This document shows, piece after piece, positions 9,801 through 60,842 of a stretch of 64,000 nt of DNA. The notes under the pieces were generated by a model. The model made no database searches and was not told the origin of the DNA. It worked only from the letters and a program-made list of their open reading frames with translations. The stretch spans positions 2,740-66,739 of the forward strand of contig MHFR01000008.1 of the NCBI GenBank assembly GCA_001804285.1. Direction: 5' to 3'. Position 1 is the stretch's first letter. The number at the start of each line of letters is the position of its first letter. A program made the translations under genes and the position numbers. Origin of the DNA: Candidatus Danuiimicrobium aquiferis. GTDB taxonomy: Bacteria > Omnitrophota > Omnitrophia > Omnitrophales > Danuiimicrobiaceae.

Positions 9801-12800
9801 GCTTCCCAGGGTTGAATTCCATAAGTTTCAAAATCTTCCTCATGTTGTCTTAAATGAGAATTCAACCCTGACAAACTCACACCGATTTTTTCCGCCGCTT
9901 GTGAAACATTTAAACCGTCCAAAGTTTTCTTTCCGTGCTGGGCGAGAAGATCGGGAATCACAGGCTCCCGCGGTTGCACCCCGTATTTCACCATATCTTC
10001 AGAATAACTTTTAAAATGAAGCGAGAGGCCTGTTTGGCTAACTCCAATCAACTCTGCCGCTTGGGTAACATTTAAACCATTCAAACGTTTTTTCCCATAG
10101 CGCTTGAGAAGCGCGGGAATGTGTTTGGGTCTCTCGATTCCATAGCGGTCAAAATCACCCTGATTCTTTTCCAAATGCTGCCCCAAACCAGCGTGGCTAA
10201 CCTTCATCAACCGAGCTGCTTGCTGGATATTTAAACCACGGAGTCTTTCTTGACCAAATTCTTTTAACCGTTCCGGAATGATTGACAAAAAAGGTTTGAT
10301 ACCATACTTTTTAAGATCTTTTGGGTTTCGTTCAAGATGCTGCGCAAGACCGGAAGGGCTGCTCCCAATCAAATCAGCTGCTTCGGCAATATTGAGACCC
10401 TTTAAACGCTTTTTTCCAAAACGTCTCAGAAGTGCCGGAATTTCCGGTTCTTGAGGAACAATTCCATATCTTTTCAGGTCTTCAGGGTATCTCGTAAAAT
10501 GATCGTACAAACTCCCATAATTGACTTTGATGGTCTGTGCTGTCTGCCGAATATTCAAGCCCCGCAATTTTTCTTTCCCTTTCTTTTCCAGAAGATCAGG
10601 AATGAAAGCTTCAACTTTAACGATCCCAAACCTCTTAAAATTTTTCGGATGCCTTTCCAAATAATCAGCCAAACCTTGTTGAGACACCCCGATTTTTCGC
10701 GCGGCTTGAGAAACATTTAATCCCTTTAACCGTCTTTTGCCAAAATGCTGAAGTAATTGAGGAATTTGCGCCTCACCTTTGACAATTTCGTATTGTCGGG
10801 CGACCTTCGGATGAGTGCCAAAAAATCGTGAGACTGTGGCTGAGGTGACGCCAATTACTCCGGCAACTTGGTTATAACTAAGACCTTTCAATTTTTTTCT
10901 ATATTTTTCCAAAAGCCCGGGCACTGTTGACGGTTTCCACCGGACTTCGGAACGCACCGGAACTGTGTTTTGTTGAAAATAAATTTCTATTAGCGTTTCG
11001 GAAGAAACGATACGATTACGATCGATCACATCAAGCGGTTCTTTTTTGTCACCGTCATATAATATAATTCGCGCGATCTCCGTTCCATCGCGTTCGTGCA
11101 ATTTTAAAATATGGTCTAAAACGTCTCCAAGTTTCACATTCTCGCGTCCCTGATTGATCGAATACACGAATTCTCCTTTCAGCCCATGTATTTCCTGCCC
11201 CATCAAATCCGTTCCTATCTTTGCACGCACTTCGCTACGCGTACTATAAATTTCGTGCAGAGGAGTTTTGCCGGTCTTCATGTATTGAAGCGCTAATAAC
11301 AATAAATAATTGGGGTCATATCGAGGAGCTGAAAAAGCTAATGTAGCATTACCGGTCGTTCCATGCATGCCGGCAAATTTCATCTTCGCTTGGTCACCTA
11401 TTCCTAACCATCCCTTGTATTCCCTTTCTTCCATTTCTTTAACAATCAAATTCGGGTCTCGGGTATATACTGAAATTTTTACTTTTGGATGATCCGTTTC
11501 TCGATCGATCACATTATCAACATACACTTCTATTCCGTCACCGATCATGATCCAATTACCTTTTCTAAAACCCCATAAAAACGGATGCTCTGTTGGTACC
11601 ATGGAACCGATCGGGAGCTTAAATGAATATTTTGAAATTTCGCTTTCCGCTTCCCTCGCCTCAGAACGGTTGGCATAAGAAACAATTATTTTAAATAAAT
11701 CATCTACCCTGTCAGCAAATAAAGATTGCTGCTGTTCCTCGACAAACGTTTGCAAAAGTTTTCTGAGGGACTGCTCATCGCCTTCATCCGCAAGTCTGAG
11801 CCACTGCCCGACTCTCGAAGGATATAGGCCAGCTCTTGCTGAAACTGGCAAGTTTTCTTTAAGCTGCTTCGTGAGCCTTTCAAACCGTGTCGGGCTTTGT
11901 TTCGCAATCGTTTGAATTTTTGCAAGCCGCGAAACTTCCTCCGGACTCAACTCAGCGCCAAAGCCCTGCATCTGGCGAAGGTTCCGCACAAACACACCGT
12001 CGATCTGGAGATGGATCGGAATTGATTGATCGGGATCAAAAAAGTGCTCATCCGAAATAAGAAGATCCATATTGCTGTGCCGGAAATCTTCCGTAAAACC
12101 GAGACGATCGTAATCATAATGGGGATTAGTAAGTTGATCATAAAAATATCCTTTTATAAATTCGCGCCAAGGACTAAAGCCTGCCTTCCTAATCGTCTGC
12201 ATGAGTTGAGAATTTAAGTTCCGCGCAATCACTTGAAGCGCCATGGCAATTGTTTGATACCGATAGGCAAACGCCTGCTCACGCGTCAAATCTTTTGATT
12301 CCTGCCATCCCCCCAAATCATACCAAATCGTTTTTTCTTTCCCTGTCAAATCAATATCTACATTTCCCTGATGGGGTTGATTGGGGAAAAATCCGGCATC
12401 ATTGACTTGTCGCAATGCCCGCCCATACGCTTGATAAACACTCGCCAGTTTCTCTTGAGCTAATTTCCCGACCACCGCTTTTCCATCCACTTGCGCCATC
12501 TGAATACGCCACGTGCGCAACGCCTTACGCCGGGCCGCAGCCAAACTCTTTTGTTCGGCATCCGAAAGTGCACTCGGAATGGCTTCAGCCAATTCATCTA
12601 ATCGCTGATTAAACGCGGCGCCGAAACGCTCATGATGCCCTTTCCTCACAAATGAAATGAAAACACCCAACTCAAAATCATTTTTCTTGAGCTCCGGACT
12701 CGTATACCGGCCGTAAGCCAAAGCAATCGGCCCGCGCAAGCCGGCCGCCGGAAGCGTGTATCTTGCGCGAATGAATTTTTTTCTTGCCGTTTCCGCCCCA

Positions 12801-15800
12801 TGCCCTCCTTCTTGAGAAAAAAGAGGCGGACTTAAAACAGGCCGGCCTTCGCGGTCAAAAGAAATATGGATGCCGAGACTCATCACCTGATCCATTGACA
12901 TATCTCGGACATGAAACGCTGTCGTTCCCCAAGAAGCCCCGAAAAATCCTTGCCCAAAGTTTTCTTTCTTGAATAACACTCCCGTAATTTCCACGGCATC
13001 CATCTCTTCACCGTTGACAACAACCGGTTCCTTCAACGCTATGCGAATGGTCCGGCCTTCGGCCTTGTTTTCCGTTAATTCTTCGTACCCGATTCCCTTC
13101 CATTCATCCGGATAATAAGCAGAAGCTTTTTCGATTTGCGCTTGCAGTTCCGGTGTTAAAGCTTTCCATAGATCGGGAACGTAAGTCATTTCAAGGGGCC
13201 GTGAGCCTTGCCATTCGGCCGTTATTAATGGATCCGTGATGGGGTCAACCACATTTTTTCTTGCCGCCAAAAAGGCGAAGGTGTCTTCCGCCAGCCATTT
13301 CGCTATTTTTTCTCCAATCCCGCGGATTTTATTTTGGGGATCCTTCAGCCATTTCTTGAATTGATCCGCATGATCAAAACTCCGCTCGCCGATTTTCGCA
13401 ACCAATTCCTGAATGACTTGCTCTGATTTGACACCGCTCGCTTGAAACACTTGAGCAATTCTGGCTTTTATCACTTCATTCCAGTCAATCGCACCCGCCC
13501 AAGTTTTTTCCGCACTATCATTATTGAAGCGACCTTCGGACCGACTAAATAACTCTTTATATTTATCCACATTAATCGTCACATAATCATCATAATTGGC
13601 ACGACGACTATAAGTTTTGACATAGCCTTCCTCTTGCAAACGGCGCAAAAAGCCTTCCATTGAAGATGCCTGAAAAACCCATGAAGATATGTTACGAGTC
13701 AGAGCCAGATAGCCTACAAGCAATTTCATAATGCCCCTTCTTTGAGGCATACTAAGTGCTGAAATAACAGAAATTGATCCGGAACCATCAATTTTATAGC
13801 CGACAGAACCAACCACGTTACCATCCGATAGGTTCATCACCGCTAAATGAAACATTTCGCCGGTCCTGGAATGGTGAACAATGAGAAATTTGACAGAAGT
13901 ATTCAAAATTTGTCCCACCGCTTGTTTTAACCGCTGTTCAAGCTCCGCATTCTCTTCCAATTCCCGCATTTCGGAGCGGCGAGCATCGGAATTCTGTCTC
14001 GGTCTTTGTCCGGATAAATACTCATCAATTGAAACTCGCCTTAGTATTTTTTTCAAGCGGTTAAACGTATGCCTGATCGAGCCGATAGAGATACCGGTTC
14101 TTTCTGACAAAGCGTCCATGCTCGAGAGCACAAAACCTTGATCGAATTCTTCCAAAATTCGGTTTGCGACCCGTCGCTCTTTGACCGGGAAAGATTTAAT
14201 CGCTTCATCAACGATTATTTCCAGCATGAAACGCCGTTCCGTTTCGGACGCCCGAAAATCATCAATGGCGGCTATCAGAACCATTTTGCCGCCGATATTA
14301 GCCCAATCCTTCCTCAACCCTAATTGCGAAAGGGTCAGGAAATCTTTGTACGACCTTCTCTCTTTCACAAGACCAACTTCTTCATATTTGATCTTGTTAG
14401 CATTTAACGCGTTGTATATGACGAAACGATTTTCAACTAAACCTTCCGAGAAATCGACCACGTTTCTGACGGTGGGCGCAATGTCCGCCGGCACTTTAGA
14501 AACCAACATTTTAAGAAAACTTTTCCGCTGATCCTTGGTTTTCGGCAACACTCTTTCCCTTACCAAGCCGAGCTCTTCGTAATTCATATCGTGCGTATTC
14601 ATCGCCGATCGAATTTGCCGGGCAGTAACCGTTCCATTCGATTGATCCGCCACATTGTTCACCGTTGGCGGAAGCCCAGGAGGTAATTTCTCGATTAGTC
14701 TGCGCAAGAATTCTTTCCATTCTCCTGTAGCTCTGGCTGGGGGCAACGCTTTCTCCATCCCGACTTCCTGGAAAGAAATTGAATGAAAGACAATCGCTGC
14801 GCGAATTTGTTCAGGCGTATGTTTTCCGCCGGAAAAAGCTGCGACATTTCTCGCGGTTCGCTTCAATCCGGAAGGAATTTTCCCTGCAATAGCAGAAAGT
14901 TCGGCAATCCATTCTGAGCGCGACCTTTTCAAATCTGTTTCATTTATCATCCCGACTTCTTGAAAAGTAATTCCGTGGTAATATAAGGCGTGCCAAATTC
15001 CAACCCCCGTTACTTCCCGGCCCGAAATATCCGCAACATTACGCGTCGTAGGTAGAGTGCCGGCCGGTAATTCCGCGACCCTGGCTTTTAAATATGCAAT
15101 CCATTCCTCTCGAGACTTGAACTCCCTGGTACTACGGGCCATTCCAACAGTTCTGTAAGGAATATCGTGCTTCCACAATGCCATTGTAATTTGCCGCTCT
15201 GAAAGAAAACTTCCCCACACGCCGGCGAGAACTTCAGGTGTTGCCGCTCTCCAGTGAGGAAGAAGTGTCACAAGGCCTTTTAATAATCTGATCCACTCAT
15301 TACGATTTTTTTTCTTCTTTCTCAGCAGCTGTTTAAGCTCTTTCCCGATAGCGGGACTCACCCGTTTTTCTCCTCGCGTGTCTCTCATTCTCTTTGCGCG
15401 ATCAGCGAGGCCATAATTCTGGATGCGCTCCCAAACTGTTGTCATATTGACATGCATACGTTTTGCCATCTTTTCCAAATGAGCATGATATTTTGCAAGC
15501 AATTTTTTAAAACGCTGCAGTTGAGAACGGTAACGCGCGGCGTTTTTCTCAAGCCCGAATCGCCTGATTTGACTGACAATAGCAGAACTCTTAACTCCTC
15601 CTAAATCTTCCGAGACTAATTTTAGATTCGCGCCTCGTTTTCTTAAGAGCTGATTCAGCACACCTTTGGTCACCCATCCAGCTTGTCTTGCCCGCAGCTC
15701 GGCCCTTGGCGAAACACTTTGTACACGCCAAGGACTCTCGTTCGTTTCGATTGATGACTGATTGGAACTTTCTTTATTGTTACGAACTTCGGAGCGATGC

Positions 15801-47912: not shown

Positions 47913-48662
47913 CTAAACGCAAATTGGAAATGTTAGCCCAAAACACGTTCCCTTCCCGGGAAATGTCTCGGCATAAATCGTTCCTCCGTTTTGTTCAACC
48001 AGCGACCGGGTCAAATAGAGTCCAAGCCCATTTGCATTCGAATAAATGGCCGTTTTCGTCGTAAAAAACGGATCAAAAATGTAATGCAAAAAATGCGGCT
48101 CAATTCCCGGCCCCGTATCCACCAGATGAATCATTGCCGTCCGTTCCTCGGGTCCCATCAGACGATCCCGGTAAATACAGCTGACATAGGCACGAAGGAT
48201 TACTTTCCGATCCGCGGTTTGGGCCGCTTCCATGGCCTGCAATGCATTTTCCGATAAATAAAATAGAATCTCCCGGAGATGCTCGCCATGAGAAATAATC
48301 AGCGGAAAATCATCCGGTACCCGGTTTAGAAATTCGACGCCGTTCGAAATTTCAGTTTCTTTTAGCTGTTCGATTACCTCCTCAAATGTTTTTTGCAGAC
48401 TGACCTTGCGTTCTATCTTTACCGGAAACTGCGTCGTGGAATAGGGCGATTCCCGCTCCCTTATTCCGGGATTCCGCAATCGCTCGATAATTCCGATCGC
48501 CCGCTCTGAATGAATTTTGATTTTTTCAGCCCATTCGTGAGACAGTATCCCGGCATTCGCCACGCCTCTATCGCGAACTCTCGTCAAATTCTCCAAATGA
48601 ACTTCTGCCATCCCCTTGATCGCATAAAGCGAACCAACAAGATCATGATTTAAGTGCTTCAT
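47913..48662 (-). CDS. Cytoplasmic histidine kinase (HisKA + HATPase_c, no sensor domain).
   Basis: The H-box lies at the extreme N-terminus (MKHLNHDLVGSLYAIKG). The G-boxes are LVDTGPGIEP and NANGLGLYLTRSLV. Confidence 0.75.
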   Translation of the reverse strand: MKHLNHDLVGSLYAIKGMAEVHLENLTRVRDRGVANAGILSHEWAEKIKIHSERAIGIIERLRNPGIRERESPYSTTQFPVKIERKVSLQKTFEEVIEQLKETEISNGVEFLNRVPDDFPLIISHGEHLREILFYLSENALQAMEAAQTADRKVILRAYVSCIYRDRLMGPEERTAMIHLVDTGPGIEPHFLHYIFDPFFTTKTAIYSNANGLGLYLTRSLVEQNGGTIYAETFPGKGTCFGLTFPICV

Positions 48663-49063
48663 GGTTTGAGAAAACTCCTTCGGTTCTTAAATTTTCAATT
48701 AATTTTTGGTGTCTATTTAGCGTTCTGAAGTGGCGAACACGCCAGGTTCGTGTCATGCCCGCATGCTTAAGGCGGGCATCCACAGTTTCTGGATCCCCGC
48801 CCTTCATGTCTGTCACACCTTTTCTATTGGATTTTTTTATTTCCAGTTTTTGTAACTTTGCAAGTCTATAAGTTTTCATTTTATCACCTTACCCCCTCTT
48901 CCCTGTAATGCTTTATATAACGATACATACCTGATATATTTAAAAAGATCAAGCCGACAAACATGGGTTTTTTTATTAATATAATATGGAATTATTGAAA
49001 TCCTTATTAAACCCGTGTATACTTACGGGTTAGGTGCTTAAACGGCCTGAAAGGGCACGGATC

Positions 49064-50386
49064 ATGTACGAAAAAATCTTGAAGCATTTCAAGGCGGCTT
49101 ACCCGGGATTCCCTGCAAAGCCTTCCATTAATCTTGGCCTTGGAATCAAGCAAATCCGCCTTCGGATGGGCATGACGCAAGACGAGCTTGCGGGGCAGGC
49201 GAAGATGAAACCCACCGCGCTCAAGACCCTTGAAAACGGCTATGCCCAATTCACAAAAGCCTCCAATTTGGAGCGGCTGGCGTCCGCTCTGCACACCAAG
49301 ATTTGTGACATCGTCAATGAAGCACGAGAATGGTTTGCATCTAATTTCTTTGTCTTAAAACTTGAAGATCCCGAGCAACCATCACCGCGTCAACGCAAAT
49401 GGCGGGCGGAAAAATGGTTTAAGGCCAAGTGGCATTCATTTGACGGCTTCGATGCCTGCCTCTTAACGTCTCCGGCAGAAGGTCCGGCGCATTTTCACTT
49501 TGCCGCAATTGATATCCATCCCGGCCACGCGCTTAAACATTTGCATCGCAAATCTCATACGCTTACGCAAATCGCCGGTTTTGTCGAACGCGGTTCTTTA
49601 AAAATCATTTATACCGGCAAAGAAGCGAGCACCCTTTCCGGCAATCAGGGATTTATCCTCCGGGGTGACAAAACGCACCAATTCATCAACGAAGACCATG
49701 ACAACAAATTGCGGATCTATTTGGCGTTCTTGTTCCCGTTGCAAAAATCAATAAAGAAAAAACCCCGAAAGAATCTTTCGCGGGAATCCTTCTCCGTCGG
49801 GCGCGCCATTGAATCGCTTCGGCTACTTTATTCCGATTCGCCTGCCCGGCCGCTTTCATTTTCCCGTCTCGCCGAACTCACGGGCCTTGATGCGAAAAGC
49901 CTGAAATACCTCAGCAAAACCAATCATCCGGGACAAGTCGTTTACTGGGATAAGATCGAAGTCATCACCCATGCACTCCATATTCCGATTTCACGTTTTA
50001 TCGAACTTGCAGAAGGAAAAGATGATGGCTATATCAAAATCGCGACAGCGCACGACCGCGCTCTGATTGATTACCGGCATTATTTAGGCGTCCGGATCAA
50101 ATCCATTTTATTTCCGTCCTCCTCAAATCAATTTCATTTTTCAGAATTATATATCGAACCCAGGGGCGGAATTCGGCGCGCAAGCTGGCGTCGAACGGAC
50201 AACGCCATGATGCTTGCTTATGTGGAAGACGGAGAATTACTGGTTGAGGTGGGGAAAAACCGGAAAACTTTACTGTCCGCGGGCGAAAGCGTTTATTTTG
50301 ACGGAAGTTTGGGCTACATTTTCACCAACTCCGGCGCTAAACCCACAAAAATTTTATTCGTCACTCATCCCGCGATTATATTTTAA
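49064..50386 (+). CDS. XRE-family HTH transcriptional regulator with two cupin domains.
   Basis: The HTH is LGIKQIRLRMGMTQDELAGQAKMKPTALKTLENG. Two cupin-like blocks follow (…LLTSPAEGPAHFH…; …LYIEPRGGIRRASWRRTDNAMMLAYVEDGELLVEVG…). The track starts at GTG 49034; the ATG at 49064 with an upstream AAGGG is more likely. Confidence 0.7.
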   Translation: MYEKILKHFKAAYPGFPAKPSINLGLGIKQIRLRMGMTQDELAGQAKMKPTALKTLENGYAQFTKASNLERLASALHTKICDIVNEAREWFASNFFVLKLEDPEQPSPRQRKWRAEKWFKAKWHSFDGFDACLLTSPAEGPAHFHFAAIDIHPGHALKHLHRKSHTLTQIAGFVERGSLKIIYTGKEASTLSGNQGFILRGDKTHQFINEDHDNKLRIYLAFLFPLQKSIKKKPRKNLSRESFSVGRAIESLRLLYSDSPARPLSFSRLAELTGLDAKSLKYLSKTNHPGQVVYWDKIEVITHALHIPISRFIELAEGKDDGYIKIATAHDRALIDYRHYLGVRIKSILFPSSSNQFHFSELYIEPRGGIRRASWRRTDNAMMLAYVEDGELLVEVGKNRKTLLSAGESVYFDGSLGYIFTNSGAKPTKILFVTHPAIIF

Positions 50387-50389: not shown

Positions 50390-50680
50390 AAAAGCCCCTC
50401 ACCCCTGCCCTCTCCCTCAGGGAGAAAAAGGGGACAGGCAATTGTTCAACTTGAGTCATATGCCTGTCCCGAATGGCACTGACTTAAGGAAATATACAGC
50501 GTTTTTTCTGGATTCCCGCTTTCGCGGGAATGACAAGAAAAGTGACGGAATATCTTTTGCCTAATAAAGTTACATTATATGTCATCCCCGCGAAAGCGGG
50601 GATCCAGCGGTAGGAATTAGCTGAAAAAGTTGTTAAGTCTTGTTAAGTCAGTGCCATTCTTGCCTGTCCCCTTTTTTACT
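50390..50680. repeat. Repeat-rich intergenic region. It contains the cccctcacccctgccc palindrome, a paired ggattcccgctttcgcgggaatgac / gtcatccccgcgaaagcggggatccag element, and gcctgtcccctttt hairpins.
   Basis: The elements are visible in the sequence. The aaaaggggacaggc…gcctgtcccctttt inverted repeats recur at 51497–51560 and 51600–51640 and could act as bidirectional terminators. Confidence 0.6.
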
Positions 50681-51497
50681 AACCGATCAATTTCCGCTCC
50701 AACGCGATTTTTTCCACGAGATCCATCACGTCAGCCATATAAAATGGCTTGGAAATGAAATCCTTACATCCGATTTTATGAAATTCGGCCTCAACATCTT
50801 CTGGTAAATCATTAGCAGACATCGGGATCATATAGGGAGGATTGGGCAGTTTGCTCAGCGCAAGAATCAGCTCGTTCCCCTGAATCCTTCCGCCCAATTT
50901 CATATCCACGAGTAAAATATCGACAGGCTCCGTTTTAAGCGCCTCGAAAGCCATGACACCGTTTGAAAAACACCTCACCTGATAATTCCGCCTTCCGAAT
51001 ATATCCTCAAGAACATCAAGGATATCCGGTTCGTCCTCGACAAATCCAATCACGCACCGGTTCTTCTCATAAATCTTGTCCTCGATTCGAACGCCTTGGC
51101 ACACAATCGACTGCCCAAGCTTTCGCTTAATCACGTTTTCCATTTCTTCAAACCGGAACGGTTTCGTCACCACGTCATTCGTCGAAATCCCGTGCCGTTT
51201 AAGTTCATCGATATATCTCGGAAGGTATCCCGTCATAATCATCGTGGGGGGAAGCGCAAGGCCGGCTTCAATAATTCTATCGAGCACCGCAATTCCGTCT
51301 AATTTTCGCATTTTCAAATCCAGCAGCATCAGTCTGACTGAAAAATTCCGCAGCTTATCGATCACCGTCGTCGGGTCCGCTGTCGCAATCGTCTCACAAT
51401 TCAATTTTTCGAAATGATCCTGCAACAACTCAATAATTTCGCGCTCATCATCAACAATCAAAATCAGCGGCCGTGGTTCAGGTTCAGTCATTGGCAT
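50679..51497 (-). CDS. Response regulator with two tandem receiver (REC) domains and no output domain.
   Basis: REC1 reads LILIVDDEREI…LLDLKMRKLDG…TGY; REC2 reads GFVEDEPDILDVL…LLVDMKLGG…KPF. Confidence 0.75.
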   Translation of the reverse strand: MPMTEPEPRPLILIVDDEREIIELLQDHFEKLNCETIATADPTTVIDKLRNFSVRLMLLDLKMRKLDGIAVLDRIIEAGLALPPTMIMTGYLPRYIDELKRHGISTNDVVTKPFRFEEMENVIKRKLGQSIVCQGVRIEDKIYEKNRCVIGFVEDEPDILDVLEDIFGRRNYQVRCFSNGVMAFEALKTEPVDILLVDMKLGGRIQGNELILALSKLPNPPYMIPMSANDLPEDVEAEFHKIGCKDFISKPFYMADVMDLVEKIALERKLIG

Positions 51498-51608
51498 GTC
51501 GTTCTTAAGAAAAGGGGACAGGCATATGACTCACAAGCAAGCAATTGCCTGTCCCCTTTTCTTCGTTTATTATTCGTCATTCGGATTTCGTCATTGCTCA
51601 TTTTACTA

Positions 51609-51998
51609 TCAATCGCCTGTCCCCTTTTCTTCACTTCCCAACAACGTCCCCACCTTCTTTAAAAACACTTCCGTGCGAAGATCAATCGGTTTTTCCAAGT
51701 AATCAATCACTCCGAATTTTTCAGCCTGCTGCTTCATGCCCATATCCACATATCCGGACATCGCCACAATTTTCATTTTTGGCCGCCGCTCACTTACTTT
51801 TTGGATCACATCCAGGCCGGTCATCGTTGTGGAAAGCTTCAAATCGACGATCATCAATTTGAAATCATGTTCATCGACAAGGCGAACCGCTTCTTCACCC
51901 GTGACCACAAACTTTCCCTTGAGATGAATCTGCTCAAGCACCTGGCACAGAAAATCCCCGATATCTTCTTCGTCATCAACAATAAGAACGTCGTACAT
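51609..51998 (-). CDS. Single-domain CheY-like response regulator.
   Basis: The sequence is MYDVLIVDDEEDIGDFL…MIVDLKLSTTMTGLDV…IVAMSGY…EKP. Confidence 0.75.
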   Translation of the reverse strand: MYDVLIVDDEEDIGDFLCQVLEQIHLKGKFVVTGEEAVRLVDEHDFKLMIVDLKLSTTMTGLDVIQKVSERRPKMKIVAMSGYVDMGMKQQAEKFGVIDYLEKPIDLRTEVFLKKVGTLLGSEEKGTGD

Positions 51999-52138: not shown

Positions 52139-54535
52139 TCACATCCCGCCTTCCGCCAGCGGGAGTTTAATCACGAATGTCGTTCCTTTTCCAACCTCAC
52201 TTTTCACGCCGATCGAACCCTTGTGGATCGATTCGACAATATGCTTTGTCACGAACAGTCCCTGCCCCTGTCCGGCCGCGCCGATACTATCGTCTTTCCT
52301 TGTTTTCGTCGAAAAACCCTGAAGCCAAATCTTCGCCGCCACTTCGGGCGGCATCCCGGGGCCGTTATCCGAAAACTCAATTTTTGCCATTTTGGGGTCA
52401 TCCTTGTCAAAACTTCCGTGGATTTCAATCACGCGCCGGCTTTGTCCATGCATCGCTTCGTAAGCGTTCTTTATCAGATTAACGAACACCTGAATCAGTT
52501 GCTCCAAATTCCCCATAATCACCACATTGGACGTGATGTGTTCCTGCAGTTCACAGCCCGCCAGATTTTCTTCATACGTTGAAAACCGGGCCGCCTCTAT
52601 GGCTTCCCGGCAAAGCACAATCAGACTCAAGGGCCCGATTTCACCGCGTGTATCTTTCAATATGTTCGTCAGCGTCCGCACAGCAATTTCAATGCGCTCA
52701 CCCGAACGCACAATCCGGCGGAGATAATCATCACTTTTAGTGATTAACTTCTCAAATTCTGCCACATCTTGACTGTCTATCCGTTCGGCATTTCGATTAA
52801 AAATCTCGCGGTATTTATTGAGTTCATACTTAATGAGCTGTTCACCGCGCCCGAGAATGGTTGAGAGCGGATTATTGACTTCATGCCCGATCGCCTTTGC
52901 CATTCCCACCATCGTCGCGCTTTTTTCTGCAACAATCAAAGATGCTTGCGTAATCTGAAGTTTTTTATTCGCCGATTCGGTTTCCTCAAGCGCTTGAATC
53001 AGGCCATGCTGGGCCCGCTCGAGTTCACGGTTCATCAACGCAAGCTCTTTTTGCTTTTGAAGGGCTTCATCGTAAAGCCGCGCATTTTCAAACGCAATAG
53101 ACGATTCCTGCGCAAGCGTAAAAAACACATCCAATTCTTCATCGGAATACGGCTCGTCGGACTTCTGCGGCCCAAGAAATAAAATTCCGCGCAAGTGGGA
53201 AACCCCTTTTCCGGCTTTCTCGTGAGATTGTTCTCCATTTTGCCGGTGAGCTTCGCCTCCGAAACACGGCACAGCCGCCTCCGCTTTGAGCGCCGTAAAA
53301 AGATCGAATATCCGATCCATCTCCTCTTTGATTTGAGAATCTTTTTCGGCCTTGCGCATCTCAATTAAATTCACTTTTTCTATCGGCCCGCGTTTTTGAT
53401 ACAGATAAACAATCAAGGGATGCGTAAACAGAATTTTTTTAAAATCGAAATCATGAATCGCCGGCCGGCTCGCTTCAAGCCTCAAACCCGTTTTGTCCCG
53501 CGCCGTGTAAACAAAAATACTCGCATTCGCAATCCGCGCCTTTTTGATCATGAACGACACAATCCGCATCGTCTGCTTCTTCAGCGAATCCACATGCGCC
53601 AAATACTCACTCGCCTCTTTCAGGAGCTGCCTATAATCCACCTTCTTTTGAAAAAGATACTGGTCTGTGAGATTTACCAGCAGCTTACGAACCGGATCAA
53701 ACAGCAGCATCGCAACGACTATACTTAGGACTCGAATACTATTCGGCCCCATCTTTAAATATTGCCCTGCAAAACTCTGCGCCAATGTCGTTACCATCGC
53801 AACCACACTCATCAACACCGCCAAAAGCCCGGCAAAGACAAGCGTCTTCTTGATGATGACTTCAATGTCCATCAGATGATGCCGAACAATCGCATAACCA
53901 ATGATAAAGCAATATATCGGAATAAAAAAGATGCCAAAGGGATAAATGTTCGGCAAAAAAGCAGGAAGAAACGTCGTTAGCCCTCCAATCACGCCAACAA
54001 AAGTAGCGATAAAAAAATAAGTAACCTGTAAACGTTTCAGGCCAATCGCGTTTAAAAAATACGAAAACAATAGAAAATATCCAATCAGAAATGGAACGCA
54101 AAAATAGATCATAAATAAAAAATAAAGTGGACCCGGCACCAGCCAATACTGAAACCCGGCTTTCAACTCGACACTTTTGATCACGTACGGCGTAAACAGA
54201 AGCGAAACAAACACGAAACCTGCCGCATAAAATGTTACTGTCAATCGCTTATGGTTTTTTGAGGCGGCTGCTTCGCAGAAAGAAATGACAAAATGTAAAA
54301 ATATGGGTGCTAATAATGCAGTCGAAATATTAATGAGCCTGATAAACGACAAACCGATCGTTTGAGTTTTCGAAAAAAATGATCCGATGAACCCAATACT
54401 GACAAAACCAACTAAAAAACAAAAAAAAGCCCACAATTTTTGAGGCAAAGAACTTTTGGGACGCGATATAATAAAAAAACCAAGAATAAAACTACCGATT
54501 AAACTAACAAACCAAGACGTGCAATAATAAACCAC
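52139..54535 (-). CDS. Membrane sensor histidine kinase (multi-TM N-terminus, GAF-like domain, coiled coil, HisKA, HATPase_c).
   Basis: There are ~7 hydrophobic helices in the first 250 aa. A GAF-like block (…ANASIFVYTARDKTGLRLEAS…LGPQKSDEPYSDEELDVFFTLAQESSIAFENARLYDE) follows. The H-box is AKAIGHEVNNPLSTILG and the ATP-lid is DNGPGMP…GQGQGLFVTKHIV. Confidence 0.8.
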   Translation of the reverse strand: MVYYCTSWFVSLIGSFILGFFIISRPKSSLPQKLWAFFCFLVGFVSIGFIGSFFSKTQTIGLSFIRLINISTALLAPIFLHFVISFCEAAASKNHKRLTVTFYAAGFVFVSLLFTPYVIKSVELKAGFQYWLVPGPLYFLFMIYFCVPFLIGYFLLFSYFLNAIGLKRLQVTYFFIATFVGVIGGLTTFLPAFLPNIYPFGIFFIPIYCFIIGYAIVRHHLMDIEVIIKKTLVFAGLLAVLMSVVAMVTTLAQSFAGQYLKMGPNSIRVLSIVVAMLLFDPVRKLLVNLTDQYLFQKKVDYRQLLKEASEYLAHVDSLKKQTMRIVSFMIKKARIANASIFVYTARDKTGLRLEASRPAIHDFDFKKILFTHPLIVYLYQKRGPIEKVNLIEMRKAEKDSQIKEEMDRIFDLFTALKAEAAVPCFGGEAHRQNGEQSHEKAGKGVSHLRGILFLGPQKSDEPYSDEELDVFFTLAQESSIAFENARLYDEALQKQKELALMNRELERAQHGLIQALEETESANKKLQITQASLIVAEKSATMVGMAKAIGHEVNNPLSTILGRGEQLIKYELNKYREIFNRNAERIDSQDVAEFEKLITKSDDYLRRIVRSGERIEIAVRTLTNILKDTRGEIGPLSLIVLCREAIEAARFSTYEENLAGCELQEHITSNVVIMGNLEQLIQVFVNLIKNAYEAMHGQSRRVIEIHGSFDKDDPKMAKIEFSDNGPGMPPEVAAKIWLQGFSTKTRKDDSIGAAGQGQGLFVTKHIVESIHKGSIGVKSEVGKGTTFVIKLPLAEGGM

Positions 54536-54537: not shown

Positions 54538-55224
54538 TTATGATTCCTTTTTTCTTATTCGAGGAAAAACCATTCCCGTTGTCTTCCGGTATTTTTTATA
54601 TTGCTGCCCGAAAATTTTAATATTATTCAACTCCTCTACCCTGATCCTCATAAAATAGGCCGGAATTGTTAAAAATAAAAAATAGAGAATCGTCATGTAG
54701 GCATTGGCAATGAGAACAACTCCCAACAGCTCAAGCAATGTCGCTGTATAAATTGGATGCCTGATATACTGATACGGACCTAATGTAATTAAACGCTTAT
54801 GCTCGATCTTTTTTTTACCAATGGCGTGAATGGCCCATTGTTTCCCAAGCGCCGCCATGCCCCACCATCTTAGTCTAAACGCCGCGACATAGATAAGCAA
54901 TCCGGAACCGCTAATAGCTAAGTTGATACTTCTCCCTGTCAGATAAAACTCTGTCATGACCAAATAGAATAAGAACACATAAGCGAAAGTCACCAGCACC
55001 AGTGTCCCATCGTCAGAAATAACAAACGTATCTTTTTCTTTAGAGGTAAAAAAGGTTTCCCAAATTCTAAAGATCGAATGAAACAAAATAAAAAAACACA
55101 GCGCAAGACCATACGGCGTAGGACGGGATCGATAAAAAATAAAACAAATAACCGGAGCAATCAAAGACAACCCGATCAAAAAAGAAAGGATTAATTTTTT
55201 ATAACTTACAATAATATTTTGCAT
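54538..55224 (-). CDS. Isoprenylcysteine carboxyl methyltransferase (ICMT)/PEMT-family membrane methyltransferase.
   Basis: It has several TM helices, and ITLGPYQYIRHPIYTATLLELLG matches the ICMT/PEMT SAM-binding signature. Confidence 0.65.
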   Translation of the reverse strand: MQNIIVSYKKLILSFLIGLSLIAPVICFIFYRSRPTPYGLALCFFILFHSIFRIWETFFTSKEKDTFVISDDGTLVLVTFAYVFLFYLVMTEFYLTGRSINLAISGSGLLIYVAAFRLRWWGMAALGKQWAIHAIGKKKIEHKRLITLGPYQYIRHPIYTATLLELLGVVLIANAYMTILYFLFLTIPAYFMRIRVEELNNIKIFGQQYKKYRKTTGMVFPRIRKKES

Positions 55225-55228: not shown

Positions 55229-56215
55229 CTAAGCTCCTGATTGATACAATCGGACTACTTTTTTCAGCAAATCGTTGACATCGGATCTGGGACTATAACC
55301 ATATTTCTCTGCTTTTGAAATATCCATCACCCAATGACTCATCAACTCTTTGATTTGTTCCGGTGCCGGAAAATCGAAACTTTTAAGAGAAGAAACTCTA
55401 TTAATTAAATGTATGATGCTGCTGAAAAACAAGGCCTTCATCGGAGAAATATTTTTGTTAGGCTCTTGAATATTATTTGTTGAACATATCAGACTGACCA
55501 ATTCGCGCATCAATAGCACTCGCTTGTCTGCGATATTAAACAACTCAACATTCGACAAATTCAAGCTCGGAATCAATGAAAAGAAATCGATCAGATTATC
55601 AATGCTACAAAAACTAATTTGATTGTTGCCATTTCCTATATGTCGGTATGTTTGATGAACAAGCTTCGATGTCAGCACAAAGAGCCTAGAATCCGAATTC
55701 ATTCCTTCACCATAAATAAGAGGGCACCGGACGATCACAATATTTCTCTTAACCGTTGGGAATAGCGTTCTGATAGCAAGCTCTGCCGCCAACTTGCTTT
55801 GCCCGTACAAAGAAATCGGATGTGGCTTCACATTTTCATCATTTTTACTATTTTGGTCGGAAGGCCCACATGCGGTGATGCTACTCAAATAAATAAATTT
55901 TTTGATATTTGTATCAGCAGTGGCCGAATATAAACTGGCAGTTGCTTCACAATTAGCTCTAAATAATTCTTTTTTACTTTGGCTAAAAACCGATCCCGCC
56001 AAATGATAAATAATATCGACATTCTTGATTTTATTTTTCAGCGAGGCCGTGTCAAAAAGGCCGGAAGTCCAAATTTCAATGTTTAGATCTTTCAAGCCGT
56101 CAATTCCGACACTTTCGGGCCGCAATAAACAAATAACTTTATGCCCGTCAGCAATCAAACGCTTTAACAAGTATTTCCCGACAAAACCAGTACTACCAGT
56201 CACAAGAATATTCAC
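55229..56215 (-). CDS. NAD-dependent epimerase/dehydratase (SDR family).
   Basis: The sequence is MNILVTGSTGFVGKYLLKRL…YGQSK…. It is 4 nt downstream of the ICMT gene on the same strand. Confidence 0.75.
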   Translation of the reverse strand: MNILVTGSTGFVGKYLLKRLIADGHKVICLLRPESVGIDGLKDLNIEIWTSGLFDTASLKNKIKNVDIIYHLAGSVFSQSKKELFRANCEATASLYSATADTNIKKFIYLSSITACGPSDQNSKNDENVKPHPISLYGQSKLAAELAIRTLFPTVKRNIVIVRCPLIYGEGMNSDSRLFVLTSKLVHQTYRHIGNGNNQISFCSIDNLIDFFSLIPSLNLSNVELFNIADKRVLLMRELVSLICSTNNIQEPNKNISPMKALFFSSIIHLINRVSSLKSFDFPAPEQIKELMSHWVMDISKAEKYGYSPRSDVNDLLKKVVRLYQSGA

Positions 56216-56276: not shown

Positions 56277-57962
56277 TTATTTTATAAATTTCCTCACAAC
56301 AATCGCCACATTTTTGCCACCAAACGCCAAACTGTTACAAACAGCTACTTTAAAATCCCCTTTGCGTCCAATATTTGGGACACAATCTAAATCACATTCA
56401 GGATCCGGAACTTCATAGTTTATTGTTGGATGGATAAAACCTTCATGAAGAGCAAGCAGCACGGCGGCTAACTGTTGCCCGCCCGCTGCACCAATTGGGT
56501 GCCCCAACATTGATTTGGACGAAGGCATAACAAGTTTATAAGCATGTTCGCCAAAGACCCTTTTCACAATAGCTGTTTCATAACTATCATTAACCGGAGT
56601 TGCATTGCCATAAGCTTCAAAAATATCAACTTCCTCTGGTTTGATGTTGGCATCTTCCAAAGCAAGTTCGATTGCTAACGAAGTATAATCACCGGAAGGA
56701 TGCGGTTTAGACATATGCCAGGCATCACAAGTAGCACCGTAACCAACTAATTCTCCATAAATGCGAGCGCTCCGCTTTAAGGCATATTCCAATTCTTCTA
56801 TAACAAACACCCAGCCACCTTCCGCAATCACAAAGCCATCTCGATCTTTATTAAAAGGACGCGATGCCTTTTTATCATTGCGCGTTGATATGGCTCCCAT
56901 TTGACAGAAAGCCGCAACAATAGCAGAGGTTACACAAGCATCGGCCCCACCAGCTACTACAATCTCCGATAATCCATATCGGATTTGTTTTAAAGCATAT
57001 CCAAAAGAATCTGTAGCGGATGTGCAACCGTTAGAAAAGGTAATGCACATACCTTTTGCACCTATCGCTCGTGCTGCCTCTGAAGAAATCGCCCCACCAA
57101 AACCTGCGATACCAGCAAATGGACGAACGCGACGCACCCCACCTCTTTCTAACGCGCGTATTTCAGGCTCTGCATAATCAAGGCCAGATGTCGCACTACC
57201 AATAATGACATCCACAGAATCGCAATTAAATAAATCCAACCCAGAATCTTTAACTGCAAGTTTTGATGCCGCAACCGCTAAATGTGCAGATCGCCCCATT
57301 CGTTTAATCTCATGAAAGTCTTCGACAAACAATGATGGGTCGAAATCACGGATTTCTGCTGCAACTTTTGAAGGATACAAAGAACAATCAAATAAAGTAA
57401 TTTGGTCTACACAATTTTTTCCTTCTCTGAGTCCTTTCCAATATTCATCTTTGCCAATCCCACTGGGCGCAACCACTCCGATGCCAGTAATAACAGCCCT
57501 TTTTAAGCCGGTTTTGTCATCTCTTCTTTTATGATGTGGCAGTGGTTCTGACGTAGAATCCTTAAGCTTTCTTTCCTGCTCGATAAGCTGAAGTTCTTCA
57601 TGAATACAGTTCAAAATTACATCATTATCAAATGGCTTAAAAATAAACTTATTAATGCCAAGCTTAATCGCATGCTCAGGAGTATCTTCCTCCGCATACC
57701 CTGTAATTAGAATATATCCGCACCCTATCGCCTTTGCTGAATAAATCTCCTTGATCTTTTGGATCGCAACCACTCCATTATCACCGGGCATTCTGATATC
57801 CGAGATAACCAAGTCAAATTCAAACCGCGCCGCTAACGACACCGCTTCGATGGCATTCGCAGCTTTTCGGACTGCATAACCTTGTTTTGTGAGTAGCTTA
57901 CTAATGCTCTGTAAAACTAATGGATCATCGTCTATTAATAAAATATTGTATGTTCTTTTCAT
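56277..57962 (-). CDS. Fusion protein: an N-terminal response-regulator receiver domain followed by a C-terminal beta-ketoacyl-ACP synthase II (FabF-like).
   Basis: The REC part is ILLIDDDPLVLQSI…DLVISDIRMPGDNG…ITGY…KPF (aa 1–120). The KAS part is …KRAVITGIGVVAPSG…FSNGCTSATDS (Cys)…CDAWHMSKPHP (His)…KSMLGHPIGAAG (His)…AFGGKN. Confidence 0.7.
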   Translation of the reverse strand: MKRTYNILLIDDDPLVLQSISKLLTKQGYAVRKAANAIEAVSLAARFEFDLVISDIRMPGDNGVVAIQKIKEIYSAKAIGCGYILITGYAEEDTPEHAIKLGINKFIFKPFDNDVILNCIHEELQLIEQERKLKDSTSEPLPHHKRRDDKTGLKRAVITGIGVVAPSGIGKDEYWKGLREGKNCVDQITLFDCSLYPSKVAAEIRDFDPSLFVEDFHEIKRMGRSAHLAVAASKLAVKDSGLDLFNCDSVDVIIGSATSGLDYAEPEIRALERGGVRRVRPFAGIAGFGGAISSEAARAIGAKGMCITFSNGCTSATDSFGYALKQIRYGLSEIVVAGGADACVTSAIVAAFCQMGAISTRNDKKASRPFNKDRDGFVIAEGGWVFVIEELEYALKRSARIYGELVGYGATCDAWHMSKPHPSGDYTSLAIELALEDANIKPEEVDIFEAYGNATPVNDSYETAIVKRVFGEHAYKLVMPSSKSMLGHPIGAAGGQQLAAVLLALHEGFIHPTINYEVPDPECDLDCVPNIGRKGDFKVAVCNSLAFGGKNVAIVVRKFIK

Positions 57963-58340: not shown

Positions 58341-59848
58341 TTAGCCCTCTGCCATCATAAACTCAATCACAAATGTCGTCCCTTTACCCGCGTCGCTTTC
58401 TACGGTAATCTTCCCGCCGCTGCGCTCGACAAGCTGTTTAGTGATGTAGAGCCCGAGGCCTGTACCTTGTTCACCTTTCGTCGTTCGAAAAGGTTCAAAG
58501 AGATGTTTCAATTGATCGTGGAAAATTCCGGTTCCGGTATCCAGGATCGTTAAAACAACCGTCCCTGTGTCATTGCGAGGAGGCCCACCAAAAACAGGAC
58601 GACTTGCCCGCCACATTCCTCGGCGGGCGAGCAATCTACGTTCTGAGATTGCCACACCCCTGCCTGTCCGGCAGGCAGGCCTTTGGGGCTCGCAATAACA
58701 GACTTCTACTCGAATTGCAATTTCCCCACCCTCGGGCATCGCCTGACAAGCATTTACGATGAGATTGAATAAAATTTGTTCTAACTCATGTTGATCAATT
58801 TTAACACGCGGCAGATTCTCGGGAATTTGATTTCTGACACTAATTTTCTCAAGCGAAAATTGGTACGCCACTAAATCCAAAACCATCTTCACTGCTTCAG
58901 CAAGCAAAGCATCCGGCAGTTGACTTCCCTTTTGATCCGCACAAGGTTTCGCAAAGTGATTCAAAGTAGTAATAACATTTGTGATCCGGTCTATCTGAAA
59001 TAGCATTTTCTCAAACGATTCCAATGGATCATGATCCGGGCTGCCCTCTTTCCACCTTTCAATTTCAACTTCTACTCTTCCTCGCAGTGCATGCAACGGG
59101 TTCTTGATCTCGTGATTGACGCTCGCCGCAAGGAGTCCGATCGTCGCTAATTTCTCTTTCTGAAATGCATCCGCAATCGCTTCGATATCGAACAGATGGT
59201 ATCTCATCATAAAATAAGCCATCACGAAGGGATAAATCGGCATGATAAATATTCCATATTGTGGGATCCGTATATCATATACGGGAAAAAAAGATAATGA
59301 TCCTCCAATAAATCCAGTTAATGTTGCAATCATAAATCCGAGCATTTGCGTTTGTTCCGGACCGCGCAGGAGCCGCATTCTTTTCACCAGTAAATAAAAA
59401 GCAAAAGGAACGGCAGTATAAAAAACAGCAAATTCAACATGAAAAACCGGGCCGTAGTGAGCAAAGTGAGAAAACTCGAACATCGGTTTTAACTCTGGAA
59501 TCAACCATGGCGTGAACGCCATGCACAAAATAAAAAGTGCCGCCATATAAAAAAATAAAGCAATCTGTAGAATTTTTTCGGATAACCTGTATAAACTATA
59601 ATAAAATGCAGCCAAGTTGCCGAAATAAAAGAAGCTGCCATATTTGCCAATCTTGCGCAAAACAACGCTTGCCCGTAAGGCGTTTGATTGGTTACAACAA
59701 ACGATAAAGCAGAGCTCCAAATACCGACAAATACACAAAATATAAAATACCGCATCCCAACTTCGTCTTGCCGTTTCAGCCAAATAAGCACAGCTATCAG
59801 AAACGTGCAAAATGAAAAAAACAGCAAGCTAAATGTATACGGATTCAT
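58341..59848 (-). CDS. Membrane sensor histidine kinase. It has a probable frameshift near 59500–59530 (or a sequencing error) and carries an in-frame hairpin-repeat insertion in the ATPase domain.
   Basis: The main frame 58341..59810 holds the TM helices, the H-box (AASVNHEIKNPLHALRG), the N-box (FNLIVNACQAMPEGGEI), G1 (DTGTGI) and G2 (GTGLGL). A separate ORF 59501..59848 (MNPYTFSLLFFSFCTFLIAVLIW…) encodes TM helices homologous to the N-terminus of the 52139..54535 kinase and overlaps in another frame. Confidence 0.6.
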
Positions 59849-60124: not shown

Positions 60125-60511
60125 TTATTTCAATCGAATTTTTCTTCGAACGAATTCGCGGATTTCTTTCAAAGCCTTGATTGCACCCATAGCATCACGC
60201 CGCATTGCCCGTTCACCCGGATATCTAAATTCAACCGAGTACGGATTTAAAGAAATGATCAGGTCCGAAACCAACTCAAAATCTCCGTCTTCATCGGAAC
60301 AAAGATTTTTTAGAAGAATTAAATCGTGGGTTTTGGGAAAGGAAATCTTTTCACGGGATAGATAAGCTTTTAAATATTTTTCTACGGACTGCTGACTGTG
60401 GAAGCAAATAGAACTGAAAAGATGTTTCCGTTTCGTTTGCGACAAAATAATCGCTGCACAATAGTCTTCTTCCGCTTTTTCGCGCCATTCTCTCGCAATT
60501 TCACTGCTCAT
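60125..60511 (-). CDS. HEPN-domain protein (toxin of a HEPN/MNT pair).
   Basis: The protein is 128 aa, with a C-terminal …EFRYPGE… (Rx4–6H-like region). It overlaps the upstream MNT gene by 11 nt. Confidence 0.65.
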   Translation of the reverse strand: MSSEIAREWREKAEEDYCAAIILSQTKRKHLFSSICFHSQQSVEKYLKAYLSREKISFPKTHDLILLKNLCSDEDGDFELVSDLIISLNPYSVEFRYPGERAMRRDAMGAIKALKEIREFVRRKIRLK

Positions 60512-60842
60512 ACAAGACCTTCCCCTTTTCGATCACTTCGATAAAAAAAGGGTCTTTCAAGCGGAGGCGCTTTCGGATTTCATCCGGGGTGCGAACCATA
60601 ATATCCATAGCAAAAGGATAGTACTGGATTGCCTTTGACACTTCGACCGCACGGGCTGGCGGCCGCTTTTTGCTTTCCATCACAACCAAAAGATCGACGT
60701 CGCTATCATCGTTAACTTTTCCATAGGCATAAGAGCCGAAAAGAATTATTTTTTGAGGACGAAATCCGGCGGCAATTTGATCAACAACTTGCCCGATCAA
60801 TTTACGTTTCTGATTTTTGTTATAATTAGAACAAATCATCAC
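60501..60842 (-). CDS. Minimal nucleotidyltransferase (MNT, antitoxin of a HEPN/MNT pair).
   Basis: FGSYAYGKVNDDSDVDLLVV matches the GSx(9–13)DxD polymerase-beta-type NTase motif. The protein is 113 aa. Confidence 0.75.
   Translation of the reverse strand: MMICSNYNKNQKRKLIGQVVDQIAAGFRPQKIILFGSYAYGKVNDDSDVDLLVVMESKKRPPARAVEVSKAIQYYPFAMDIMVRTPDEIRKRLRLKDPFFIEVIEKGKVLYEQ

Follow-up and report, generated by a model that had tools for sequence, protein, structure and literature searches.

Within a 64,000-nucleotide stretch of the genome of Candidatus Danuiimicrobium aquiferis (Omnitrophota; contig MHFR01000008.1, positions 2,740 to 66,739; the whole of this stretch is hereafter the window), a single gene couples an N-terminal response-regulator receiver (REC) domain to a C-terminal β-ketoacyl-acyl carrier protein (ACP) synthase (KAS) domain. 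The observed architecture, residue pattern, clade, synteny and parallel fusions incline us, with somewhat better than even confidence, to read this REC-KAS protein as a genuine response regulator whose output would be a divergent, non-canonical KAS-II-like acyl-thioester enzyme serving a specialised lipid or lipid-signal module. With the same modest preference we regard it as distinct from the housekeeping FabF, as a member of an Omnitrophota-specific clade and as part of an apparently non-transcriptional two-component module. The gene, its receiver and its linker are located as follows:

56277..57962, minus strand: REC-KAS fusion gene (open reading frame; Pfam REC and ketoacyl-synt N/C)
57603..57944, minus strand: REC domain, aa 7-120 (Pfam; residue alignment of 46 family members)
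57924-57932, minus strand: acidic pocket, D11-D13
57798-57800, minus strand: codon of Asp55, the phospho-acceptor
57702-57704, minus strand: T87
57636-57638, minus strand: K109
57504..57602, minus strand: linker, aa 121-153 (in the AlphaFold2 (AF2) model an extension of helix α5 to about aa 135, then a disordered basic stretch)

In the list of open reading frames (ORFs) of the window this gene is a single frame of 561 aa plus stop without interruption, its ATG preceded by a Shine-Dalgarno-like GAGGG. Pfam recovers Response_reg at aa 7-120 (E = 4e-24; 85.3 bits against a PF00072 gathering cut-off of 30.2), ketoacyl-synt at aa 156-392 (E = 4e-39) and Ketoacyl-synt_C at aa 402-517 (E = 4e-30). 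An AF2 model built with 46 homologues (mean predicted local distance difference test score (pLDDT) 83; predicted template-modelling score 0.73) arranges the protein as REC, a long α5 helix (aa 113-135), a disordered linker (aa 136-148, pLDDT <50) and the KAS domain. Given the general error rate of metagenome assembly and the frameshift in a neighbouring kinase gene (see below), one might suspect that the two halves were brought together by mis-assembly, or are two genes joined by a sequencing error. However, at least 57 clusters (at 90% identity) in the protein database carry the same full-length REC+KAS ORF, at 58-100% identity and from independent samples and assemblers; the identical protein (P0001) is present on 13 contigs, and one apparent stand-alone entry (P0058) proved on re-examination to be a shortened gene call of a continuous REC-KAS ORF. 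These observations rule out an artefact for all practical purposes, and the REC-KAS fusion and its FabF-type fold are real. The original prediction had named a stop or frameshift between the two parts as fatal to the finding, and the reading frame runs straight through. The database search that it had called for, using the REC plus ketoacyl-synt N/C architecture, returned the above clusters, the named ones all deriving from Candidatus Omnitrophota. As for its worry that the architecture might turn out to be common and already characterised, it is fairly common in metagenomes, as these clusters and a second REC-KAS group show, while a characterisation is found in no publication that we could locate.

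The receiver retains D11-D12-D13, D55 (in DLVISDIRMP), T87 and K109-P110, in agreement with the CheY pattern of D12/D13, D57, T87 and K109. In the alignment of 46 family members D12, D55, K109 and P110 are invariant, and so is a family-specific E91-E92-D93-x-P95 signature in the β4-α4 region, which is the part of a receiver that moves upon phosphorylation. Judged by these residues the domain looks fully phosphorylatable, with no sign of a pseudo-receiver, and the earlier description of a complete REC domain with acidic pocket, phospho-acceptor and KP motif was confirmed at every residue.

The C-terminal domain and its key residues map to the following positions:

56286..57503, minus strand: KAS-II-like (thiolase-fold) domain, aa 154-559 (Pfam, NCBIfam, alignments, Foldseek)
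57024-57026, minus strand: Cys313
56610-56612, minus strand: Tyr451
56604-56606, minus strand: Asn453
56514-56516, minus strand: Lys483
56499-56501, minus strand: His488
56322-56324, minus strand: Phe547

Its model superimposes on Bacillus subtilis FabF (4LS7) with a Foldseek TM score of 0.94, a root-mean-square deviation of 2.0 Å and 42% identity, and the matches in the PDB include B. subtilis FabF (4LS5, E = 7e-100), the actinorhodin ketosynthase (KS; 1.5e-79) and FabB (about 1e-52). The domain passes the broader KAS II subfamily model PRK07314 (406.7 bits against a cut-off of 387); its score with the NCBIfam fabF equivalog TIGR03150 is 421.2 bits, below the cut-off of 493.75. We assigned residues through the B. 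subtilis FabF alignment and E. coli FabF numbering, with the E. coli reference sequence checked by residue identities. Elongating KSs use a Cys163-His303-His340 triad in which both histidines are catalytic (PMC9006962; bioRxiv 10.1101/644518), and in E. coli FabF the gate is Phe400 within the GFGG gating loop (399-402), while Lys65, Arg68 and Lys69 together with Arg127, Lys128 and Arg206 dock the ACP (bioRxiv 10.1101/644518).

Measured against this template the active site is Cys313-Tyr451-His488. Cys163 is kept as Cys313, Lys335 as Lys483, the second catalytic histidine (in KSMTGH) as His488 and Phe400 as Phe547; the first catalytic histidine (in NAHGTST) is replaced by Tyr451 (in EAYGNAT). 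Thr305 becomes Asn453, and Gly399, the hinge glycine of the gating loop, becomes Ala546, the loop reading A546-F547-G548-G549 in place of GFGG. The original prediction of a full KAS II with an intact Cys-His-His triad thus falls on the tyrosine and on the missed equivalog cut-off. The histidine that it had taken for catalytic, in CDAWHMSKP, sits in a non-catalytic DAYH motif; the lesson for annotation is that spotting motifs by eye chose the wrong histidine.

These substitutions characterise a whole family, which we term YGN after the altered motif. H303Y, T305N, G399A, K312S and I148R are clade-specific and invariant or nearly so: Gly399 is replaced by Ala (or Ser) in 98 of the 99 YGN sequences. 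Arg206, an ACP-docking residue, has become Gly in 94 of the 99, a change that, like A162G, G236W and S264C, is partly common to the nearest His-bearing relatives. Asp265, Pro272, Asp311, Asn396, Asn404 and Phe202 are retained, as are the basic ACP-docking equivalents at positions 68, 69, 127 and 128. Throughout the family Cys313, Lys483, His488, Phe547 and Asp459 show 100% conservation, as do the flanking Asn residues. Hence, the nucleophile and the residues of the first half-reaction appear to be strictly maintained, while the malonyl decarboxylation site seems to have been remodelled in a fixed way, a pattern that speaks for purifying selection acting on a site that is altered yet functional, and against decay.

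Two alternatives bear directly on this pattern. According to the first, which was that of the original prediction, the protein is a receiver-controlled but otherwise ordinary FabF/KAS II, and phosphorylation tunes bulk fatty-acid or polyketide elongation with malonyl-ACP, for instance during homeoviscous adaptation driven by membrane-sensing seven-transmembrane (7TM) kinases. The best sequence and structure matches are indeed to FabF, PRK07314 is passed, and the Cys, Lys335, His340, Phe400 and most ACP-docking residues are in place. Moreover, the second REC-KAS group, about 40% identical and with Cys-His-His, adjoins genes for an ACP and a thioesterase, and Asn453 could conceivably stand in for the lost histidine, as in the Cys-His-Asn condensing enzymes of the KAS III type. 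Yet a catalytic histidine of elongating KSs has given way to an invariant tyrosine, the fabF equivalog cut-off is missed and no fab genes occur in the 64-kb window. Further, other Omnitrophota metagenome-assembled genomes (MAGs) encode an ordinary FabF with the motifs T-A-C...A-H-G-T-S-T...G-H-L-L-G, and in four of five cases its gene immediately follows one for an ACP. These emerged from a scan of the genome collection with the family alignment, in which the peptide patterns PDP[ED]CDL.. and TCDAWHM proved generic and ordinary FabFs at 40-46% identity were among the matches listed. Because such acpP-fabF pairs are found in these MAGs, the phylum, at that level, has a normal elongating enzyme. 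The invariant Tyr for His303, together with the coordinated Thr305 to Asn, Gly399 to Ala and Arg206 to Gly changes, argues that the protein of the window is not a canonical FabF, and we consider this first alternative unlikely.

The second alternative takes the KAS-like domain for a dead pseudo-enzyme that acts as an acyl-ACP or lipid sensor, a scaffold, a signalling adaptor or a partner of the chain-length-factor (CLF) type. The loss of a triad histidine and of the hinge glycine of the gating loop would suit such a role, as would the dense signalling neighbourhood of the gene, and condensation-incompetent precedents exist in KS0 domains (PMC6855096), CLF and the anammox protein amxFabFmut (bioRxiv 10.64898/2026.05.19.726425). 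However, CLF-type proteins lose the Cys that is here conserved without exception along with the other residues listed above, and the substitute Tyr and Asn are themselves invariant, which suggests that they are in use. The domain always occupies the output position, and in two related loci (L091 and L095) a dedicated ACP lies next to it. No second KS gene accompanies REC-KAS in any of the loci examined, each having a single KAS gene; the retained Cys and this missing partner rule out a CLF-like heterodimer. A catalytically dead domain in general is, to our minds, improbable, to about the same degree as an ordinary FabF.

When 248 KAS domains are placed in a neighbour-joining tree, 98 YGN sequences group together as a single pure clade, and the motif A-Y-G-N-x-T is present in every close relative regardless of whether it is a REC-KAS, PilZ-KAS, KAS-START or stand-alone protein. 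Clustering at 50% identity leaves only a few representatives of this clade, to which stand-alone KAS proteins with the canonical His (P0097, P0102, P0106) are sister. The next-best matches (P0121-P0185) are mostly KAS domains preceded by PocR, PocR-GGDEF, GGDEF or one or two PilZ domains, and most of these keep the canonical Cys-His-His, as does the separate REC-KAS group at about 40% identity (P0103, P0111, P0113, P0118, P0120). There is a strict polarity to all these architectures: the signalling domain (REC, PilZ, GGDEF or PocR) is always N-terminal and the KAS domain always the C-terminal output, with no case of a KAS domain placed as the sensor. A second, independent Tyr303 pair, the PilZ-KAS proteins P0161 and P0179, falls beside a Phe303/Gln340 variant, which suggests that the branch of KAS-like proteins near them is, as far as sequences tell, unusually plastic at the active site.

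Other triad variants were also encountered among the KAS-II-like relatives, namely Cys-Phe-Gln (P0140, P0183) and Cys-His-Gln or Cys-His-Asn (P0146, P0166, P0211, P0216, P0234), as was a single KAS-NUDIX fusion (P0149).

In the window, REC-KAS lies in a minus-strand array that starts with a 7TM histidine kinase, followed after an intergenic region of 378 nt by REC-KAS, after 61 nt by a short-chain dehydrogenase/reductase (SDR), after 4 nt by an ICMT-like methyltransferase, after 2 nt by a second 7TM histidine kinase, after 140 nt by a stand-alone REC protein and after 111 nt by a REC-REC protein:

58341..59848, minus strand: upstream 7TM histidine kinase, frameshifted (Pfam HisKA and HATPase_c; tblastn)
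55229..56215, minus strand: extended SDR, 328 aa (Epimerase / NAD_binding_4 / 3beta-HSD-like; TGxxGxxG and YxxxK motifs)
54538..55224, minus strand: ICMT/PEMT-family integral-membrane methyltransferase, 228 aa, starting 4 nt past the SDR and ending 2 nt before the kinase
52139..54535, minus strand: sensor histidine kinase, 798 aa (HisKA_7TM at aa 9-224, a central region, the H-box IGHEVNNPL and HATPase_c)
51609..51998, minus strand: stand-alone receiver protein, 129 aa (Pfam)
50679..51497, minus strand: double-receiver REC-REC protein, 272 aa (two Response_reg stretches)

The cluster of two sensor kinases, two receiver proteins, ICMT-like methyltransferase and SDR/epimerase seen in the original prediction agrees with the Pfam results (one receiver protein being a REC-REC), with the qualification that the upstream kinase is frameshifted: its orthologue in L001 gives two tblastn high-scoring segment pairs in different frames, with the shift near 59555-59573. 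Relative to that orthologue it also has about 30 extra residues, rich in Arg, Pro and Gly, in the ATP-lid region of the HATPase domain (about 58500-58670). Either the gene has become a pseudogene or the assembly is at fault here. The SDR position is equally occupied in L001; matches of the SDR to OleA/OleD, HpnA or thioester reductases were far below the curated cut-offs and gave no assignment.

The array is conserved in almost every related locus that we examined. The shared order, seen in the independent loci L001/L002, L003/L004, L005/L006, L091, L092, L093 and L095, runs from KAS through either an ICMT, in some cases joined to a class-I methyltransferase, or a small START/SRPBCC protein to a 7TM(-GAF) histidine kinase, a REC and a REC-REC protein; a reduced array surrounds a PilZ-KAS (L007) and a true stand-alone KAS (L008). 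The ICMT gene is directly 3' of REC-KAS in L001, L003, L005, L091 and L095, and that of the window shares 44% identity with the stand-alone ICMT encoded in L095. An orthologous 7TM(-GAF) histidine kinase follows the KAS gene in all loci examined but L010, which there has a stretch without a called gene. A single-REC gene is downstream of the kinase in most of these loci, and conservation extends to a REC protein of 242-278 aa in L003, L005, L010, L091, L092, L093 and L095. We found no DNA-binding response regulator in the arrays next to REC-KAS, the only output domains being enzymes.

Several related loci contain further enzymes of potential relevance. The dedicated ACP of L091 and L095 is encoded just upstream of REC-KAS, and L095 additionally encodes a REC-4HBT thioesterase (11897-12808), a REC-hydroxymethylglutaryl-CoA reductase (REC-HMGR) and two ICMT-like proteins. 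The receiver of that thioesterase is 45% identical to the REC of the window, and GYAEEDxP is common to both. The canonical-triad REC-KAS locus L009 combines an ACP, a 4HBT thioesterase, a 7TM-GAF histidine kinase, a REC and an HD-GYP protein, and is flanked by lipid acyltransferase and glycolipid genes; L001 has an MMPL transporter. REC-HMGR, which is also present in L003/L004, is itself a conserved Omnitrophota family with at least 29 clusters, in which PilZ-HMGR, PilZ-REC-HMGR and stand-alone forms mirror the KAS series. Its genes often adjoin a 7TM histidine kinase and sometimes REC-KAS:

L003, 6782-8365: REC-HMGR
L004, 1459-3261: REC-HMGR
L094, 10001-11596: REC-HMGR
L095, 10001-11587: REC-HMGR

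A literature search turned up no description of REC-HMGR. Its proximity, along with that of a thiolase, prompted us to consider an HMG-CoA-synthase-like or mevalonate role for the KAS domain, which has no residue or pathway support and is speculation.

Since the fusion is genuine, the receiver residues are complete and the kinase, receiver, ICMT and SDR context is conserved, direct phospho-control of the C-terminal enzyme domain is the most reasonable reading. To this extent the original proposal of phosphorylation-dependent control is supported; its extension to fatty-acid elongation is not supported as stated, because of the altered site, the lack of a fab operon and the ordinary acpP-fabF of other MAGs. 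The phosphotransfer partners, gating mechanism, chemistry and product that we infer would be linked in the following manner. One or more polytopic 7TM histidine kinases would sense a membrane or lipid cue and phosphorylate Asp55. The ensuing change on the α4-β5-α5 face of the receiver, with its invariant AEEDxP motif, would alter the packing of REC on a constitutively dimeric KAS and thereby gate the access of acyl-ACP to Cys313. As KAS II enzymes are already obligate dimers (bioRxiv 10.64898/2026.05.19.726425), it is more probable that phosphorylation gates substrate or ACP access in the manner of CheB than that it drives dimerisation. The first half-reaction, acyl transfer onto the Cys, would be retained, while the second, normally malonyl decarboxylation and condensation, may be remodelled by the Tyr, Asn and Ala substitutions. 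The product might then be passed to the co-transcribed SDR for reduction and to the ICMT-like methyltransferase, or in other loci to the START lipid-binding protein, to yield a specialised membrane lipid or a lipophilic signal that would feed back on the same kinases.

The gene content fits two roles. One is the post-translational remodelling of membrane lipids in response to the state of the bilayer, for which the KAS-like enzyme, the PEMT/ICMT-like methyltransferase, HMGR, the HpnA-like SDR and the MMPL transporter of L001 may be cited. The other is the production of a lipophilic signal that the same 7TM-GAF kinases would detect, feedback coming from REC, PilZ and HD-GYP; here the relevant genes are KAS, ACP, thioesterase or reductase, and the methyltransferase or START carrier. 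Gene content does not separate the two.

Several observations weigh against an output enzyme embedded in a lipid or lipid-signal module of this kind. One of the two kinases flanking REC-KAS is frameshifted, and the 64-kb window encodes no ACP, thioesterase or HMGR, leaving the pathway locally incomplete. Downstream of KAS some loci have ICMT and others START, and the SDR is missing from some, so that the pathway may be looser than drawn here. A tyrosine at the position of His303 could abolish catalysis as well as still permit condensation, outcomes that would favour the pseudo-enzyme and the ordinary-FabF alternatives, respectively. The AF2 model offers no reliable REC-KAS interface and no guide to the geometry of Tyr451, its linker being disordered and its YGN loop having a pLDDT of about 61, and the KAS tree is a simple neighbour-joining tree without support values.

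Taken further, and tentatively, as we hold it to be less probable than the response-regulator reading itself, the related loci might point to a small acyl-thioester or lipid pathway in Omnitrophota and their relatives in which every enzyme has its own signalling input and no transcription factor takes part, with a chemistry and a signal that would be new. The KAS-like enzyme, the 4HBT thioesterase and the HMGR-like reductase would each bear a REC (with PilZ, GGDEF or PocR in paralogues), and the membrane-embedded 7TM kinases together with cyclic di-GMP (c-di-GMP) would turn the entire pathway on and off at the post-translational level. A chemistry other than decarboxylative Claisen condensation would be performed by the Cys-Tyr-His(+Asn) KAS, and the same kinases would detect the resulting lipid or lipophilic signal.

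In the prevailing view, bacteria regulate lipid synthesis chiefly at the level of transcription and through acyl-ACP feedback, and we know of no description of a condensing-type enzyme under direct two-component or c-di-GMP control. Our literature searches likewise returned no receiver- or PilZ-fused KAS, absence from such searches being no proof of non-publication, no Cys-Tyr-His KAS (a His to Tyr KS variant) and no pathway with a receiver on each of several acyl-thioester enzymes. In the databases these fusions are named either 'beta-ketoacyl-ACP synthase II' or 'response regulator', names under which stands a conserved and diverse set comprising REC-, PilZ-, GGDEF- and PocR-KAS, REC- and PilZ-HMGR and REC-thioesterase. 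With its invariant Cys-Tyr-His(+Asn) site, the family provides a natural experiment on what His303 contributes to KAS catalysis, and the site may be the sign of a reaction new to the thiolase superfamily. More generally, the module offers a handle on membrane sensing and remodelling, or on the exchange of lipid signals, in the Omnitrophota, which are uncultured, ultra-small and possibly host-dependent.

Beside the array are two further genes that may belong to the system, the inclusion of the first in the module being tentative:

49034..50386, plus strand, convergent with the array: XRE-type helix-turn-helix (HTH) plus cupin protein (Pfam), possibly a small-molecule-responsive transcription factor
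47913-48662, minus strand: HATPase_c-only protein, 249 aa

Counterparts occur in L005, L010 and L092 as a 248-aa HATPase_c protein and cupin and/or HTH genes. A scan for promoters and terminators in the window gave counts not above shuffled expectation; a weak terminator-like hairpin follows the upstream kinase. A motif of about 23 nt (minus-strand sense GAAGAAAAGGGGACAGGCAATTG) recurs at 50419-50444, 50657-50679, 51542-51564 and 51610-51635, with copies at or just past the 3' ends of the REC and REC-REC genes and one copy inverted. The convergent intergenic region between the HTH-cupin and REC-REC genes contains an inverted repeat with 39-nt arms (CTGGATTCCCGCTTTCGCGGGAATGAC...; 50508-50607), which could be a bidirectional terminator or an element resembling repetitive extragenic palindromes or miniature inverted-repeat transposable elements.

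At 60125-60842 on the minus strand we found a HEPN and nucleotidyltransferase (NTP_transf_2/Polbeta) pair of the toxin-antitoxin type with an 11-nt overlap. A pair of the same kind lies within the homologous module of L010, and ParE/Phd pairs are interspersed in L005, L008 and L092. Much of the window (61%) is taken up by an uninterrupted minus-strand ORF of 13,076 aa (6851-46081). Within its first 5,000 residues the only Pfam matches are to ABC1 atypical-kinase, GT5 starch-synthase-like and epimerase domains; aa 5,001-10,000 have no Pfam match, and the last 3,076 have only weak HTH-like ones. Such giant ORFs typify the Omnitrophota (PMC10066038). At its left end (1457-6788, minus strand) the window has ordinary housekeeping genes, which encode a D-Ala-D-Ala carboxypeptidase with a peptidoglycan-binding domain, a GH57 branching enzyme, a DUF4912 protein and a citrate synthase.

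The fusion of REC to metabolic enzymes is a recognised way to place an enzymatic activity under environmental control (Galperin, PMC5847659). Like the CheB methylesterase, the GGDEF proteins PleD and WspR and the HD-GYP protein RpfG, REC-KAS combines an N-terminal receiver that looks phosphorylatable, a flexible linker and a C-terminal, probably catalytic domain, and its candidate kinases are encoded alongside it, as expected of response regulators with enzymatic, post-translational rather than transcriptional output. It differs from them in that its predicted output is an acyl-thioester enzyme of the thiolase superfamily, for which we found no such description in the literature, and in that sister enzymes of the putative pathway, the 4HBT thioesterase and HMGR, carry receivers of their own.

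With FabF (B. subtilis, PDB 4LS5-4LS8; E. coli) the output domain shares the thiolase-type fold and Cys163, Lys335, His340, Phe400, Asp311, Asp265 and Asn396/404. Unlike FabF, it has a receiver at its N-terminus, adjoins neither acpP nor other fab genes in the window, and shows the invariant or nearly invariant His303 to Tyr, Thr305 to Asn, Gly399 to Ala, Arg206 to Gly, Ala162 to Gly, Lys312 to Ser and Ile148 to Arg changes. The KS0 domains of trans-acyltransferase polyketide synthases (PKSs) also have a KAS/KS fold with a non-canonical triad, keeping the Cys and lacking the HGTGT histidine (PMC6855096); the KAS of the window, a discrete type-II protein without PKS module context, does not belong among them. 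Nor does it belong with CLF and amxFabFmut, which lack the Cys nucleophile and have an adjacent KS partner (bioRxiv 10.64898/2026.05.19.726425), whereas here the nucleophile is kept and no KS partner is adjacent. From all of these it is further set apart by the nature of the replacement, a strictly conserved Tyr and Asn instead of a variable loss.

Parallels in architecture are the PilZ-, PocR-, PocR-GGDEF-, GGDEF- and canonical REC-KAS proteins, with which it shares an N-terminal signalling domain, the S-T-G-C motif (Gly162) and 7TM-GAF kinase neighbours. In contrast to it, most of these signal-domain-fused relatives keep Cys-His-His, and c-di-GMP-related or PocR inputs take the place of phosphorylation; these relatives serve as context, not as a functional reference.

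A looser analogy may be drawn with circuits in which polytopic membrane kinases are coupled to lipid-modifying or lipid-signal enzymes, such as DesK-DesR, which controls membrane fluidity, and the quorum-sensing systems Rpf/DSF (diffusible signal factor) and PhcBSR, the latter employing a 3-OH-fatty-acid-methyl-ester. Related loci likewise have a methyltransferase and an RpfG-like REC-HD-GYP. The comparison is by analogy only, and no homology to DesK, RpfF or PhcB is shown. Unlike these systems, the array of the window contains no response regulator of the transcription-factor type, and the receiver is borne by the enzyme itself.

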